64,000 nucleotides of DNA from Tissierellales bacterium (GTDB lineage Bacteria; Bacillota; Clostridia; Tissierellales; DATGTQ01). This document shows positions 222 to 56,329 of the stretch, in pieces. The translations under genes were made by a program, and so were the position numbers. Within the stretch, counting starts at the first letter, position 1; every line of letters starts with the position of its first letter. The notes under the pieces are model-generated. The model was not told where the DNA came from, searched no databases, and saw only the letters and a list, made by a program, of their open reading frames with translations. The DNA is taken from assembly GCA_035301805.1 (NCBI GenBank), contig DATGTQ010000079.1:3672-67671 (forward strand). Reading direction: 5' to 3'.

Positions 222-1171
222 AAAAATATTATTTGGGAATAGATACAAGTGCATATACAACTTCTATAGCCGTTGTAGATAAGGATAGAAATATTATTTT
301 TGATAATAGAAAAGTATTAAAAGTTGAATCAAGAAAAAAAGGTTTAAGACAGCAGGATGCAGTTTTTCAACATTTGAATAATATACCTGATATAATAGGT
401 GATTTAACAGAAAATATAGATGTTGAAAAATTAGATACTGTCTCTGTCAGTGCAAAACCTAGAAATGCGAAGAACTCATATATGCCTGTTTTTGTCGTGG
501 GAAAAGGACAGGCATATATTATTGCTAAAATGTTAAACTTACATTATAAAGAGTTTAGCCATCAAGAAGGACATATTGGAGCTGCAATGATGAGTAATGA
601 TTTAATATATAAAGACAAATTTTTAGCTTTCCATCTTTCTGGTGGTACTACGGAAGTTTTATTAGTTAATAATAAAGAAAAAAATTTTAAAATTGACATT
701 ATTGGTGGTTCTTTAGATATAAGTGTTGGACAATTAATAGATAGAATAGGGGTACAATTAGGATATAGGTTTCCTTGTGGGAAAAAGCTAGATGAAATTT
801 CTAAGAATAGCTCTATTATCCCTTTAAAATATCCAATTAAGACTAAAGGTACTTGGGCTAATTTTTCAGGTATGGAAAACTTTTTTATTAATTTAATACA
901 ACATGAGAAATATGGTGAGGAACAAATTATAAAAACCATGTTCTACACTATTGGTTTAATGCTGGAAAAGCTTATATTAGGAACATGCAAGAAAACTAAT
1001 ATTAATACTATTGTTCTTATAGGTGGTGTAGCATCTAATTCTATTATAAAGGAATATCTTTTGGGTAATTTAAGAAAAAAAGGTATTAATGTATTTTTAA
1101 CTAATAATAAATTATGTACTGATAACGGGGTCGGGGTAGCTTACTTAGGTACAATCAAGGATGGACACTAA
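218..1171 (+). CDS. Kae1/TsaD-like ASKHA-fold protein (glycoprotease / M22 family)
   Basis: 317-aa ORF with N-terminal [15 protein letters not shown] and an HQEGH metal-binding-type motif, as in the TsaD/Kae1 family. ATGA overlap with nusB. Confidence 0.6.
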
Positions 1172-53061: not shown

Positions 53062-53095
53062 GTATATCACCCCTTATATTTACTTTATTTATATG

Positions 53096-53135
53096 ATTAT
53101 ACCATATTAATATTTAAACATCAAACATTAGTTCT
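53096..53135 (-). promoter_or_regulatory. lexA promoter with SOS (LexA) box
   Basis: On the minus strand: AGAACTAATGTTTG (plus coordinates 53122-53135) fits the Firmicute GAAC-N4-GTT(C/T) box and overlaps -35 TTGATG (53119-53124). A 17-nt spacer precedes the extended -10 TGgTATAAT (53096-53104). Confidence 0.6.
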
Positions 53136-54102
53136 AATTTGAATTATTATGGTCAGCAAGTGGATTGCTCTTTACAGCAGTTCTAAGACGTTGGTCATCA
53201 ATGTGAGTATATATTTGGGTTGTAGAAACATTTTCATGTCCTAAAATTTCTTGCAACGCTCTAATATCTACATTACCATATTGATACATTAAAGTTGCCG
53301 CTGTATGTCTTAGCTTATGGGCGGAATAGACAGTAGGATCTAACCCTGCTATCTTTAAATATTTATCTATTGCATGCTGAACAGCTCTAGTACTTATTCT
53401 GTTTTTTCTTTTACTTAAAAATAATGCTTTTTTATCATTATTTTCTTCAGGTCTAACCTTTAAATAGTCATCAATAGCAGAAATACAAGAGTCATTTAAG
53501 TATATAGTCCTTTCTTTATCTCCTTTTCCTACAACGGCTAAAGTGTCACCTTTTATCTTATCAATATCAATACTAACAAGCTCTGACAATCTTAAGCCAC
53601 AGTTTAAGAAGAGGGTGAGGATAGCATAATCTCTTTTTCTATAGTACTCATTTTTATTAGTGTTAACGGCATCTAGAAGTTTTGTCGCTTCTTCTAAAGT
53701 GAGGAAGACAGGTTGTCGATTTTTAGTTTTAGGGAACTCTAAGAAATCTGCTGGATTTTTATCTATAACATTTACAATGCCATAAAGATAAGAATAAAAT
53801 GATTTAATACTAGCAACTTTTCGAGATTTAGTATAATTACCATTATTCATATTTTTATCTACATAACCAATATAGGCATGAAGGTCCTGTAAGTTAATTC
53901 TTTTGATGAAATCAACATCAATATCAGTGATGTCAATATCCTCAAAAGGAATAGAGTCATCAACTAATCGATATCTAAGTTTAAGGTATTTGAAGAAAGT
54001 TCTTAAGTCATAATAATATTCTTTAACAGTATTTGAGGAAGCACCTTTAATAGTCTCCATATAATTCAAAAAATCCTCTGCAATAATAGGTAAATCTCTC
54101 AT
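53134..54102 (-). CDS. Tyrosine recombinase, Xer/integrase family
   Basis: Core-binding N-domain, catalytic GLRLSEL, HKLRHTAATLMY and LGHENVSTTQIYTH. I prefer ATG 54102 (SD AAAGGA +8 nt) over the track's 54111. Confidence 0.85.
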   Translation of the reverse strand: MRDLPIIAEDFLNYMETIKGASSNTVKEYYYDLRTFFKYLKLRYRLVDDSIPFEDIDITDIDVDFIKRINLQDLHAYIGYVDKNMNNGNYTKSRKVASIKSFYSYLYGIVNVIDKNPADFLEFPKTKNRQPVFLTLEEATKLLDAVNTNKNEYYRKRDYAILTLFLNCGLRLSELVSIDIDKIKGDTLAVVGKGDKERTIYLNDSCISAIDDYLKVRPEENNDKKALFLSKRKNRISTRAVQHAIDKYLKIAGLDPTVYSAHKLRHTAATLMYQYGNVDIRALQEILGHENVSTTQIYTHIDDQRLRTAVKSNPLADHNNSN

Positions 54103-54155
54103 GAAAATCATCCTTTCTATAATTTTTAGTACTTTTACTATAATTATATCATATG

Positions 54156-54185: not shown

Positions 54186-54296
54186 TGATAAATAGATAAA
54201 AAAATAAACGGTAAATAGACCGTATTAAATAATTATAGTAATCATTTAAATATCTTAACTATTTAAAAAGTAATAAATATTGCTTTATATTAAAAT

Positions 54297-54457
54297 CTAA
54301 TTAATTTTTATATCATCTTCAATCTTAGCTTTCGCTTTAAAATTTAATTCTAATTTATTCTTTATTGCATATTACTTTGTTTTTTAACAATTGCTACTAT
54401 ACTTGAGATAGCTATTATAGTTATACAAGTTATCATAGCTATTAAAATTTTATTCAT
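54297..54457 (-). pseudogene. Frame-disrupted paralog of the small membrane protein gene
   Basis: SD GAGGTGAGG + ATG 54457 gives MNKILIAMITCITIIAISSIVAIVKKQSNMQ* (stop at 54362-54364). Another frame continues YAIKNKLELNFKAKAKIEDDIKIN*, which matches ...IYNKDKLELEFKTKTEVKDN of the intact copy. Confidence 0.45.
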
Positions 54458-54471
54458 TTCCTCACCTCATG

Positions 54472-54500
54472 TTGTTATTTTTTTAAATATAGGATATAAT
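54472..54500 (+). promoter_or_regulatory. Plus-strand sigma-A-like promoter facing the 3' end of the small ORF
   Basis: TTGTTA (54472-54477), exact 17-nt spacer, TATAAT (54495-54500). Confidence 0.45.
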
Positions 54501-54506
54501 AAAAAT

Positions 54507-54584
54507 AGAAGAGATTGCAGGATAAAATTAGTTGAACTATCTTTTAAATAGGCTGCGTGCTGTGAACACGAAGTCTATTTTTTT
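54507..54584 (+). ncRNA. Candidate ~78-nt convergent antisense RNA (type I antitoxin-like)
   Basis: Defined only by the promoter at 54472-54500, a hairpin at 54553-54573 (CTGCGTG/CACGAAG, 1 mismatch) and a T7 run at 54578-54584. It overlaps the stop and last codons of the minus-strand ORF and would be complementary to that ORF's 3' UTR. Confidence 0.3.
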
Positions 54585-54807
54585 GTATCTTTTTCTCCTT
54601 GCTTCATATTAAAGTCTATTTCATTTTTGGCATTATCTTTTACTTCAGTTTTTGTTTTAAATTCTAACTCCAGTTTGTCCTTATTGTATATTGTAATAGA
54701 AGCTATACCTACTAGCGCTACTATTGTCATACAAAATATACCCCACAGCATAACTGTTTCTCTTTCCATATCACCACTCTCCTCTTTTGCGCTCCTGCAA
54801 TCTCTTC
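54508..54807. repeat. Perfect 15-bp inverted repeat pair flanking the small ORF
   Basis: GAAGAGATTGCAGGA (54508-54522) and its exact reverse complement TCCTGCAATCTCTTC (54793-54807) enclose 270 bp containing the ORF and its SD. Confidence 0.85.
54575..54769 (-). CDS. Small hydrophobic membrane protein (64 aa), type I toxin-like architecture
   Basis: MERETVMLWGIFCMTIVALVGIASITIYNKDK... has one TM helix followed by a K/E/D-rich tail. SD GAGGAGAG lies 7 nt before the ATG. About 95-nt leader from an extended -10 promoter. Confidence 0.55.
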   Translation of the reverse strand: MERETVMLWGIFCMTIVALVGIASITIYNKDKLELEFKTKTEVKDNAKNEIDFNMKQGEKDTKK

Positions 54808-54863
54808 ATATTAGATAAAATAGGAAGAAAGAGTGGTTTTTTGGCCTAATTCAACTAATCCCT

Positions 54864-54879
54864 TATGTTTATTATACCA
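54864..54879 (-). promoter_or_regulatory. Extended -10 promoter for the small membrane protein mRNA
   Basis: The minus strand reads TGgTATAAT (plus coordinates 54871-54879) followed by AAACATA. This mirrors TATAATAAAAATA of the plus-strand promoter at 54495-54507. Confidence 0.45.
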
Positions 54880-55377
54880 TATTTTAGACAAAAATTAGTT
54901 GATTATTTATCATTGTTAGATTATTTTTATACCTCAAGCTTAGGTTATTTTGATTCATCATTTATTTTATCTTTGAAATTAATTATTAAACATTTCCATT
55001 AAACATATAACAAATATTATTTATATATAACTATATAGTATTTAAATAGCTTCCTAAGTAATGTATCCGCTGTTAATTTCCTATAAAATCCAGGGCGAAA
55101 TATTATAAAAGCAAATTATAAAAAAGCGGTCTTTAAAAGGTGGCAATTTTGGACTTAAATACATTTTGAATACAATAACATTCTTAACAATATAAAGGCT
55201 CCTAAATCGTATGTTTAAAGCATTAAACCACAAACTGGAATCTTATAACTTTATAAAGTTCAATAAAATGCGATTTATATTGTTATTATTATAAATGTTC
55301 CATTTTACACCAAATTTATGTTGGAAACTATAAAGTTTTTATAAATAAATTATTTTTCAGATAACTTTATTAATTGA

Positions 55378-55421
55378 ATTAAAATCTTATTATCTAATAC
55401 TTTATATAATAAGATTTTAAT
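55378..55421. repeat. 16-bp perfect inverted repeat in the ORF-free region
   Basis: ATTAAAATCTTATTAT (55378-55393) / ATAATAAGATTTTAAT (55406-55421), 12-nt loop. Confidence 0.8.
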
Positions 55422-55511
55422 TTTAGTATAATTTTAATATCTTAAAACTAATGTTCTAAATTATAGCTTAACTATTAGGATGAAAAATGTATTATCATGA
55501 GTAAATATATT

Positions 55512-55597
55512 TTAGTTAACATAATTTTATTATGTTAACTAATTCAATAATTCAAACATAGGTTTACATAATAAAGTTATGTTAACCTATGTTTGAA
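55512..55597 (-). terminator. Two tandem long hairpins downstream of the ThiF-like gene
   Basis: Hairpin A has arms 55551-55571 / 55577-55597 (21 positions, 1 mismatch). Hairpin B has arms 55512-55524 / 55530-55542 (13 bp). Both share a TTATGTTAAC core, and neither has a strong U-tract. Confidence 0.45.
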
Positions 55598-55627
55598 TTG
55601 CTTATAGCCAACAATATCCATTGTTAA

Positions 55628-56329
55628 TTAATCAAACTCAATTAAATCATAATTATTTTCTAAGCTATCAATGAATAAAACTTTTTTATTTAGCAAATCT
55701 CCTTGTTTTATTAGCAGTTTTATTACTTCTGAAACTTCCATTGATGCAATTAATGGAACTATAAAAGAAAGGTTTCCCAGACTCCCTTCTATCCCTTTCT
55801 TTTCTATAGTATCTTCTGGATATAATTTATTTAGTATATCATCTCCAGGCAAGATAGTAGTAACCTGACCATAAAATCCAGCTATAGCTCCATGTATCAT
55901 TGGTATATCTAATTGTTTAGCTTTTTCTTGTAATAATAATCTTACTTTAATATTATCAAGAGCATCTACTATAACATCATGCCCCTTTAAAATAGTAGAT
56001 GCATTTTTTGCAGTTAGCATTTTATCTATTGCCGTTACCTTAATTAATGGATTTACTAGCTCCATCCTTTTTTTTGCTTCAATAGCTTTATTTTGACCTA
56101 TATTTTTAGTATGACATAAAACTTGTCTATTTAAATTTGTTTCATCAAAAACATCTCCATCTATAACAGTAAGGTTTCCCACTCCAATTCTCCCAAGTAA
56201 TTCAATAATATATCCACCTAATCCTCCACAGCCAACAATACAAACTTTACTTTCATTTAAAATTTTATTTTCCCCTATAGACAAAGCATTCATATTCTTA
56301 ACATATCTTTTGTCAATATGCTTTTTCAT
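55628..56329 (-). CDS. ThiF/MoeB/HesA family E1-like adenylyltransferase
   Basis: 233 aa. VCIVGCGGLGGYIIELLGRIGVGNLTVIDGDVFDETNLNRQ nucleotide-binding motif. No C-terminal Cys-rich or rhodanese domain. Confidence 0.8.
   Translation of the reverse strand: MKKHIDKRYVKNMNALSIGENKILNESKVCIVGCGGLGGYIIELLGRIGVGNLTVIDGDVFDETNLNRQVLCHTKNIGQNKAIEAKKRMELVNPLIKVTAIDKMLTAKNASTILKGHDVIVDALDNIKVRLLLQEKAKQLDIPMIHGAIAGFYGQVTTILPGDDILNKLYPEDTIEKKGIEGSLGNLSFIVPLIASMEVSEVIKLLIKQGDLLNKKVLFIDSLENNYDLIEFD

Follow-up and report, generated by a model that had tools for sequence, protein, structure and literature searches.

A predicted type I toxin-antitoxin-like module in a Tissierellales bacterium and other Clostridia, with a convergent antisense RNA that would copy two segments of the mRNA leader

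Toxin-antitoxin systems of type I are difficult to find, because neither their peptides nor their RNAs are conserved between families. Antitoxins of the RatA and SR4 type trigger RNase III-dependent decay, and SR4 also tightens the structure at the Shine-Dalgarno (SD) sequence from a distance. In Gram-positive bacteria the recognized traits of such systems are a small transmembrane (TM) peptide with a charged C-terminus, an antisense RNA overlapping at the 3' end, and location in a prophage (PMC6563280, PMC8594479). These traits are matched by the module that is the subject of this work, found in a stretch of 64,000 nucleotides from a Tissierellales bacterium (contig DATGTQ010000079.1 of assembly GCA_035301805.1, positions 3,672 to 67,671; hereafter the window). 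It comprises an open reading frame (ORF) for a protein of 64 amino acids (ORF64), a second small ORF (ORF31), and a predicted antisense RNA gene on the opposite strand. We estimate the probability at roughly 0.6 that this module represents a previously unnamed, horizontally mobile type I toxin-antitoxin-like family in Clostridia, that is, a new type I family. Among clostridial type I systems only those of Clostridioides difficile have been validated experimentally, and in-silico candidates in Clostridium kluyveri and other species are mentioned as unexamined (PMC6563280).

Several described systems resemble the module in parts of their layout. In txpA/RatA and bsrG/SR4 of Bacillus subtilis an antisense RNA is likewise convergent with the toxin gene and lies over the 3' end of its mRNA, and the toxins, of no more than about 60 amino acids, likewise have an N-terminal TM segment and a charged C-terminus and are found at prophage or other mobile sites (PMC6563280, PMC8594479). 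The par locus (fst/RNAII) of the Enterococcus faecalis plasmid pAD1 shares with the module convergent transcripts meeting at a common hairpin, a 5' structure hiding the SD, and sequence blocks present in both RNAs; par stabilizes its plasmid (PMC7472228). Long-distance closure between the 5' and 3' regions of the mRNA, together with SD sequestration in a layered RNA folding, is known from hok/Sok of plasmid R1 and aapA1/IsoA1 of Helicobacter pylori (PMC6733600, PMC5416894, PMC9841398) and is predicted here as well. Finally, the CD toxins and RCd RNAs of C. difficile likewise come from Clostridia and combine an N-terminal TM segment and a lysine-rich tail with overlapping convergent genes located in prophages and plasmids (PMC6563280, PMC5961336, PMC7699646). 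The elements of the module around ORF64 are the following (positions are those of the window):

54871-54879, minus strand: extended -10 of the small-protein mRNA, TGGTATAAT, read from the sequence; predicted start at about 54864
54847-54862, minus strand: leader block B, GGGATTAGTTGAATTA, the very 5' end of the mRNA, forming a 16-bp helix with B' (54524-54539)
54828-54837, minus strand: anti-SD segment of the leader, ACCACTCTTT, paired with 54773-54782 in the minimum-energy fold
54793-54807, minus strand: leader block A, GAAGAGATTGCAGGA, between anti-SD and SD, pairing with A' (54508-54522)
54773-54782, minus strand: SD region of ORF64, GGAGAGTGGT, sequestered by the anti-SD in the fold
54575-54769, minus strand: ORF64, candidate toxin of 64 amino acids, its N-terminal TM helix followed by a charged tail that ends in KK, from ORF reading
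54524-54539, minus strand: block B' in the spacer/3' region of the mRNA, complement of leader block B
54508-54522, minus strand: block A' in the spacer/3' region of the mRNA, complement of leader block A
54472-54500, plus strand: antisense promoter TTGTTA-17-TATAAT, 10 of 12 positions matching
54546-54584, plus strand: intrinsic terminator, a hairpin (about 54546-54580, from the RNA fold) and then a T7 run (54578-54584)
about 54507-54584, plus strand: predicted antisense RNA of about 78 nt, candidate antitoxin, with the order 5'-A-B-terminator, deduced from promoter and terminator

Within the AT-rich window alone, no single one of these features exceeds the level of chance. The number of promoter-like sites does not rise above background (17, with 14.9 +/- 4.6 expected), the leader fold is equalled by 11 of 200 shuffled sequences (z = -1.9), and that of the small plus-strand RNA by 18 of 200 (z = -1.4). 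The case for the module therefore rests on comparative evidence. The set compared consisted of the window locus and 13 further independent loci of the family, 14 in all; L082, a 98%-identical strain, is not among them, and the relative referred to as L081 has a peptide 67% identical to that of the window. Every element of the module was found at the same relative position in the 13 further loci, with different sequences. A first-pass annotation of this DNA had cautiously called the locus a type I toxin-antitoxin-like module, and this proposal is supported by the comparison, as is its more specific prediction of an mRNA whose leader hides the SD.

The extended -10 element, correctly placed in that annotation, has the form TGnTATAAT in 12 of the 14 loci, the exceptions being L090 (TAGTATAAT) and L091 (TGGTATAGT), and TGGTATAAT is unchanged in L081 and L082. 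The leader, of about 95 nt in the window, ranges from 79 to 125 nt across loci. The proposed pairing of CCACTCTTT (reverse complement of 54828-54836) with AGGAGAGTGG (reverse complement of 54774-54783), by 7 Watson-Crick and 2 G-U pairs, was recovered by RNAfold in the minimum-energy structure of the leader, and an anti-SD:SD helix of 9-14 bp, including the flanks of the SD, is present in the minimum-energy fold of all 14 leaders. In an alignment anchored on four helices, where it is helix 2, it is 100% paired, and all 9 pairs vary on both sides across loci. For each of the 14 leaders, the calculated cost of exposing the SD lies within 6-16 kcal/mol. On these models, the leader of the putative toxin mRNA would be structured so that translation is repressed, as is characteristic of type I systems.

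On the plus strand, the promoter, hairpin and T7 run described earlier were found again and proved to be conserved, the promoter in 14 of 14 loci and a strand-specific terminator in 12 of 12. A perfect TATAAT is present on the antisense strand in every locus, 5-9 nt before the complement of A' in 13 of the 14; the -35 is GTTTA-like, about 17 nt upstream of TATAAT, and a TG extension often occurs. Since this TATAAT is also kept in the 7 loci that lack a second small ORF, it is not explained by the ribosome-binding site of that ORF. For an RNA starting at about 54507, the predicted fold has a terminator stem of 13 bp with U's behind it, and the T-run is complementary to the codons for the final Lys residues of ORF64. 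ORFs of the family typically end in lysine- and A-rich codons, with the hairpin directly after the stop codon. In 11 of 12 loci the antisense strand gives the more stable version of this hairpin, since G-U pairs in it become A-C in the mRNA, and a U-run comes after it on the antisense strand only (12 of 12 loci). The stems, helix 4 of the anchored alignment, are wholly different between lineages and co-vary. Across loci, the predicted antisense RNA would be about 75-95 nt long, with block A first, then B, then the terminator.

As the two transcripts overlap, the antisense RNA would be complementary to the mRNA, being the full complement of its hairpin, B' and A'; the type I arrangement, an antisense RNA gene overlapping the toxin mRNA and pairing with it, is thus present as a prediction. 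The first-pass annotation had placed this complementarity in the 3' untranslated region of ORF64. The overlap stands, whereas that label does not, the segment being a spacer before the second small ORF (54362-54457). No Rfam match was obtained, either for the window at E <= 1 or for the 14 loci at the gathering score.

Two features had been overlooked earlier: ORF31, and a pairing of the leader with the 3' region, by virtue of which two segments of the leader would recur in the antisense RNA. Positions 54508-54522 and 54793-54807 form a perfect inverted repeat of 15 nt, and a second block (ATTAGTTGAA) also links the leader to the spacer; the order along the mRNA is B, anti-SD, A, SD, ORF, hairpin, B'-A' and then ATTATA, which is TATAAT on the other strand. 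An A:A' helix of 11-19 bp is found in all 14 loci, with differing sequences: block A reads GAAGAGATTGCAGGA in the window, ATGGGATACCACAG in L089, GGGAGCTGTAAGG in L090, AGGGAAGCCGTTAATTGG in L091 and AAAGAGGTCATTGCGGTT in Clostridium, and single compensated changes occur among the close relatives L088, L094 and L095. In the 12 loci tabulated, block A ends 20-32 nt before the start codon. The B:B' helix measures 6-17 bp and occupies fixed relative positions, its sequences being unrelated between lineages. In the minimum-energy folds of the full mRNAs of the window and L081, the extreme 5' end pairs with B' through different sequences, with compensatory changes.

The specificity of this pairing was assessed in two ways. 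When every leader of 7 lineages was set against every 3' region and the best perfect helix scored, the cognate assignment was the only one of 5040 permutations to reach 257 (mean 153). In the four-helix alignment 97.1% of cells are paired, a figure partly built in because the alignment windows were picked by complementarity within each locus; after shuffling of partners between loci the value is 56.9 +/- 1.8, with none of 500 shuffles as high, and with partners slid it is about 42%. Helix 1 (B:B') is 97% and helix 3 (A:A') 99.5% paired. The shuffle result shows the pairing to be specific to the locus. The arms of helix A differ by 15 G-U pairs and one non-pair (G-A in L087), and transitions in A and A' always give G-U on the mRNA strand (15 versus 0). 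Selection for identity of the DNA would leave A-C and G-U equally common; the asymmetry therefore indicates that selection acts on RNA pairing in the mRNA strand.

An antisense RNA read from the other strand would begin 5'-A-B, with the same sequence as the two leader blocks and perfect complementarity to the docking site. The leader and such an RNA would therefore have to compete for one element, B'-A'. The effect of docking is less easily predicted. The long-range helices are interleaved, and a pseudoknot arises where A:A' crosses the anti-SD:SD helix; nested thermodynamic models therefore cannot decide the direction of the effect. Docking may either lock the mRNA, as tac-fbi does in hok, or help to open it; in the latter case the small RNA would repress by competition. 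The two helices, present in 14 loci and specific for the cognate partner, would constitute a fold-back of the hok type, which is a resemblance of design and not of family, homology to Hok being absent.

ORF64 itself was confirmed as a minus-strand ORF with a TM helix and a charged tail, the single hydrophobic helix spanning residues of about 7-28. Contrary to the earlier statement, it is not unannotated: NCBI lists it as hypothetical protein VK071_03660 of a Tissierellales metagenome-assembled genome. A word-indexed protein search returned only 3 matches, namely the window's own protein, one 98% and one 67% identical. An exhaustive HMMER search followed by a profile search extended the family to about 32 clusters of single-TM proteins of 59-66 amino acids, from Tissierellales, Alkaliphilus, Thermoanaerobacterium, Thermoanaerobacter kivui, Clostridium kluyveri, C. 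autoethanogenum, C. tyrobutyricum and metagenomes. A Cys in the TM helix is invariant, a Tyr at the helix end nearly so, and the charged tail keeps an alternating pattern. The AlphaFold2 model is one long helix with a low-confidence tail (predicted local distance difference test, pLDDT, 69). Compared with L081, ORF64 has a ratio of nonsynonymous to synonymous substitution rates (dN/dS) of 0.19 at a dS of about 1 and by this measure is under purifying selection, in line with the coding conservation expected at the outset. Together with the dN/dS of 0.34 of ORF31, this value argues that both ORFs are real coding genes. A small TM protein encoded by the mRNA, the first trait of a type I system, is predicted at each locus. 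For L081, the recorded gene call (779-1003, minus strand) is 74 amino acids long, yet under table 11 it contains an in-frame TGA at codon 11, which could be an artefact of the caller, a recoded stop or a sign of a pseudogene.

The earlier impression that the peptide belongs to no named family held, as the ORF64 family had no match in Pfam, NCBIfam, PHROG or PADLOC. The cut-off of the NCBIfam model CD_typeI_toxin (NF047374) was missed (best E = 0.0071, in 2 of 23 members), and the window protein did not match it. One UniRef entry (P0030) bears the label YtzI; this is unsupported, the NCBIfam model small_YtzI (NF033232) giving E = 0.9 in 1 of 23 members. In the literature searched, nothing was found on the ORF64 family or on locus tag TKV_c17700, and an earlier in-silico listing of a member is possible; the supplement of Fozo et al. 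2010 reportedly lists predicted C. kluyveri candidates.

Downstream of ORF64, just beyond the proposed antisense promoter region, the following elements were recognized:

54460-54468, minus strand: strong SD of ORF31, GAGGTGAGG, read from the sequence
54362-54457, minus strand: ORF31, MNKILIAMITCITIIAISSIVAIVKKQSNMQ, a TM-only truncated paralogue of ORF64, from ORF reading
54300-54361, minus strand: out-of-frame remnant of a duplicated tail-coding part, KNKLELNFKAKAKIEDDIKIN, from a direct repeat and tblastn
about 54198-54223, minus strand: terminator-like site after ORF31, ACGGTCTATTTACCGT and then a T-run, the only such minus-strand site in the region

The remnant contains a direct repeat 87% identical to 54599-54628, and tblastn with P0003 matched 54309-54362 (E = 0.003). 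Since family proteins match the TM region of ORF31 and the tail remnant lies behind it, ORF31 is best regarded as a truncated tandem paralogue of ORF64. It is kept as an ORF of 28 amino acids in L081 (the dN/dS given above refers to the first 26 codons), and short ORFs of 28-31 amino acids with a GAGGTG-type SD are present in 7 of the 14 loci. The hairpin behind ORF64 has no U-run on the minus strand, and the sole terminator-like site of that strand in the region lies after ORF31; ORF64 and ORF31 are therefore probably co-transcribed, as judged from these signals. On the IMG/VR contig L340, a 5'-truncated second copy (781-980) follows the module and keeps the tail-coding part, the hairpin and the A' block, without the antisense TATAAT. 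This tandem decay resembles the ORF31 remnant of the window.

The locations of the module point to mobility. It is carried by three C. tyrobutyricum plasmids, each of about 62.8 kb, and on the MOBQ plasmid pCTK01 of this species the gene lies between conjugal-transfer genes and a resolvase. On a 58.6-kb plasmid of C. kluyveri it adjoins a serine recombinase gene, and on a 436-kb plasmid of Alkaliphilus it is near a GmrSD_N-domain gene and a gene for a Cas3-like helicase. A predicted prophage of C. kluyveri has it at the end of the lysis cassette, C. autoethanogenum inside a TraG/TrbL conjugative element, and five IMG/VR contigs carry it. The neighbourhood differs between loci. Relatives of the window have the gene order aspAT, xer, yneA-like, lexA and no module, whereas in the window an extra ThiF-like gene and the module stand between aspAT and xer; a contig profile scan of relatives found the peptide in none of 80 loci retrieved via the Xer-like recombinase. 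Absence from the syntenic site of related genera identifies the module as an insertion in the window and, together with the plasmid, prophage and conjugative sites, as an accessory mobile unit, as expected for an addiction or stress module. Searches with the loose DNA patterns TTGCAGGAG-N3-16-GGAGGTG (viral and metagenome contigs) and TCAAGRRRTTGCAGGAG (viral) gave, among the matches listed, unrelated DNA and no family member.

Some observations concern the surroundings of the module. The ThiF/MoeB-family gene between aspAT and the module (55628-56329) is not at that site in the relatives L001, L003 and L007, and probably belongs to the same variable insertion as the module. Three near-perfect palindromes lie in the non-coding DNA 3' of it (55377-55422, 55515-55599), with arms of 21 nt (95%), 25 nt (92%) and 23 nt (96%). 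Relatives have a gene for a YneA-like protein of 109 amino acids with TM and LysM segments between the xer-like recombinase and lexA (e.g. L001 4976-5305); in the window this gene is missing and the gap between the two is only 63 bp (53071-53133). LexA-box-like sites, of which the window has 9 against 9.3 expected, include two on the minus strand, at 53123-53134 (GAACTAATGTTT), in the 63-bp gap before lexA, and at 55445-55456 (GAACATTAGTTT). The latter lies directly behind a TATAAT (55463-55468, minus strand) in a long stretch of non-coding DNA, some 570 bp upstream of the module. It is followed by no convincing ORF, and the site at 55445-55468 may belong to an SOS-controlled small transcript. 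L082 is without about 150 bp just upstream of the module (a jump from about 55090 to about 54940, corresponding to about 54945-55090 of the window) and has before the -10 the sequence GAACTAATTTTT, one base off a lexA operator, where the window has CAACTAATTTTT. In T. kivui, a fluoride riboswitch (Rfam RF01734, 40 bits; L084 5534-5593) is found downstream of the module, before a DUF6062 operon, and is unrelated to the module.

As to mechanism, we propose that the TGnTATAAT promoter would drive an mRNA for a single-TM protein of about 60 amino acids, to which half of the loci would add the TM-only paralogue of 28-31 amino acids. The mRNA would be born translationally closed, the anti-SD of its 95-nt leader being paired with the SD. 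Block B at the extreme 5' end and block A just before the SD would pair with the adjacent blocks B' and A' right behind the ORF, tying the 5' end to the 3' region as in the hok and aapA1 mRNAs. The convergent RNA of about 78 nt would start exactly at the complement of A' and end at a terminator whose U-tract is complementary to the last lysine codons. Acting as the antitoxin, it would invade or pre-empt the docking site, and the long duplex would be cleaved and degraded, as with RatA/txpA and SR4/bsrG; this binding would also strip the 5' end of the mRNA of its protective partner. In this scheme we infer toxicity of the peptide, the transcripts themselves, repression by the RNA and the direction in which the long-range pairing acts.

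An elaboration that we regard as possible, if doubtful, would make the antisense RNA a mimic of the leader. Leader and small RNA would then compete for B'-A' in a switch of three partners, the occupancy of the docking site deciding whether the anti-SD-locked leader is stabilized, opened or degraded, and the ORF31 peptide would enter oligomers of the full-length protein, serving there as co-toxin or as dominant-negative antidote. Hetero-oligomerization of the two peptides is a guess. If this elaboration were true, a protein layer would be added to an RNA-controlled system.

Measured against the described systems, the module differs from each of them. It has no protein or RNA sequence similarity to txpA/RatA or bsrG/SR4 (NCBIfam, Pfam and Rfam gave no match); here it is only with the U-tract of its terminator, over about 3 codons, that the antisense RNA overlaps the ORF, the 3' segment covered by the antisense RNA is also the one with which the leader pairs, and a TM-only paralogue follows in half of the loci. 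In par the repeats are direct on the DNA, which gives RNAII its complementarity to the 5' region where translation of the toxin mRNA is initiated. The repeats found here are inverted, so that the small RNA would have the same sequence as the leader blocks and find its complement in the 3' region alone. Kinship with Fst/RNAII finds no backing: complementarity to the 5' region is lacking, no Fst homology was detected and there was no Rfam match. The hok/Sok and aapA1/IsoA1 systems come from Gram-negative bacteria, and in them a 3'-processed mRNA is bound by the antisense RNA in its 5' part, while here it would target the 3' partner of the long-distance interaction. The C. difficile CD toxins are shorter (34-59 amino acids against 59-66 here) and show no significant homology to the family; leader-3' UTR pairing and a companion peptide are not described in the papers on them cited above. 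What we rate as new is a family that would combine the Gram-positive 3'-overlap layout with a leader-mimicking antisense RNA and a companion peptide.

Several points weigh against a toxin-antitoxin function. No known toxin resembles the protein family significantly, and several loci stand in ordinary chromosomal contexts, e.g. nikR-cbiM (L086) and YetF/YceG (L089). The conserved alternating pattern of the tail exceeds the needs of a simple charged tail and could reflect a specific, non-toxic function. In nested thermodynamic models (leader alone, full mRNA, 3' region masked, A and B blocked) accessibility of the SD changed in no consistent direction, and the paired percentage of the alignment is, as noted, partly inherent in its construction. 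Moreover, the antisense RNA would copy the leader; should the long-range pairing act as a lock, such an RNA would undo it, the opposite of what an antitoxin does. Much of this would suit an operon for small, non-toxic membrane proteins (ORF64, alone or together with ORF31) whose expression is adjusted by a cis-antisense RNA and an elaborate mRNA structure, and which involves no addiction or killing; the product might, for example, modulate a membrane complex or act in envelope stress. Conservation of the tail pattern and of the invariant Cys across distant genera suggests a specific interaction, and many small TM proteins are not toxins (PMC10730256). We nevertheless consider such an operon unlikely, though far from negligible, in view of the plasmids on which the module sits beside resolvases, its place at a prophage end, in a conjugative element and on IMG/VR contigs, the unconserved neighbourhood and the empty syntenic site in relatives, the tandem decayed copies in the window and L340, and the control of translation and RNA in three layers, which is typical where expression of a gene is dangerous.

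Two further explanations start from the position of the module in the window. Its location 1.3 kb from lexA and on the same strand, the replacement of the relatives' TM and LysM gene by a 63-bp gap, and the LexA-box-like sites at 53123-53134 and 55445-55456 would fit an SOS-linked inhibitor of cell division, like YneA or SosA, taking the place of the LysM-type yneA beside lexA. This is very improbable: the ORF64 promoter has no LexA box, the nearest being the one about 570 bp upstream, the number of such sites is at chance, none of the 13 other loci adjoins lexA, and the protein has neither a LysM domain nor similarity to YneA. An invertible DNA switch, in which the adjacent Xer-like tyrosine recombinase would act on the 15-bp inverted repeats and flip the ORF between promoters, has in its favour the perfect repeat flanking the ORF, promoter-like sequences facing inwards on both sides, and a tyrosine recombinase gene (53134-54111) about 250 bp downstream of the ORF31 stop. 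However, the orientation is identical in all 15 sequences (the 14 loci and L082), the repeat blocks are interleaved (A, B and then the reverse complements of A and B) and not nested, and the 15 versus 0 excess of G-U on the mRNA strand, which recombination of DNA would not favour, points to RNA. The recombinase, besides, is the conserved xer found beside lexA in relatives that have no module, and most other loci have no recombinase nearby. On the grounds of constant orientation, interleaved repeats and G-U asymmetry we rejected the switch, which we regard as scarcely credible. For the type I toxin-antitoxin-like family, on the other hand, the comparison of loci supports a closed leader, a co-varying tie between the 5' and 3' regions, a convergent small-RNA gene, selection on the coding sequence, and mobility, as read from genome sequences.

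The RNA design is unusual in that the antisense RNA would duplicate two leader segments and target their 3' partner; how pairing within one molecule competes with pairing between two could here be tested cleanly by mutation. That a TM-only paralogue has been retained repeatedly poses the question of control between peptides. If the module is indeed of type I, it would add to these systems a family extending across Tissierellales, Thermoanaerobacterales and Clostridium. Being present in industrial strains (C. tyrobutyricum, C. kluyveri, C. autoethanogenum and Thermoanaerobacter kivui) and on their plasmids, it would bear on plasmid stability and strain engineering.

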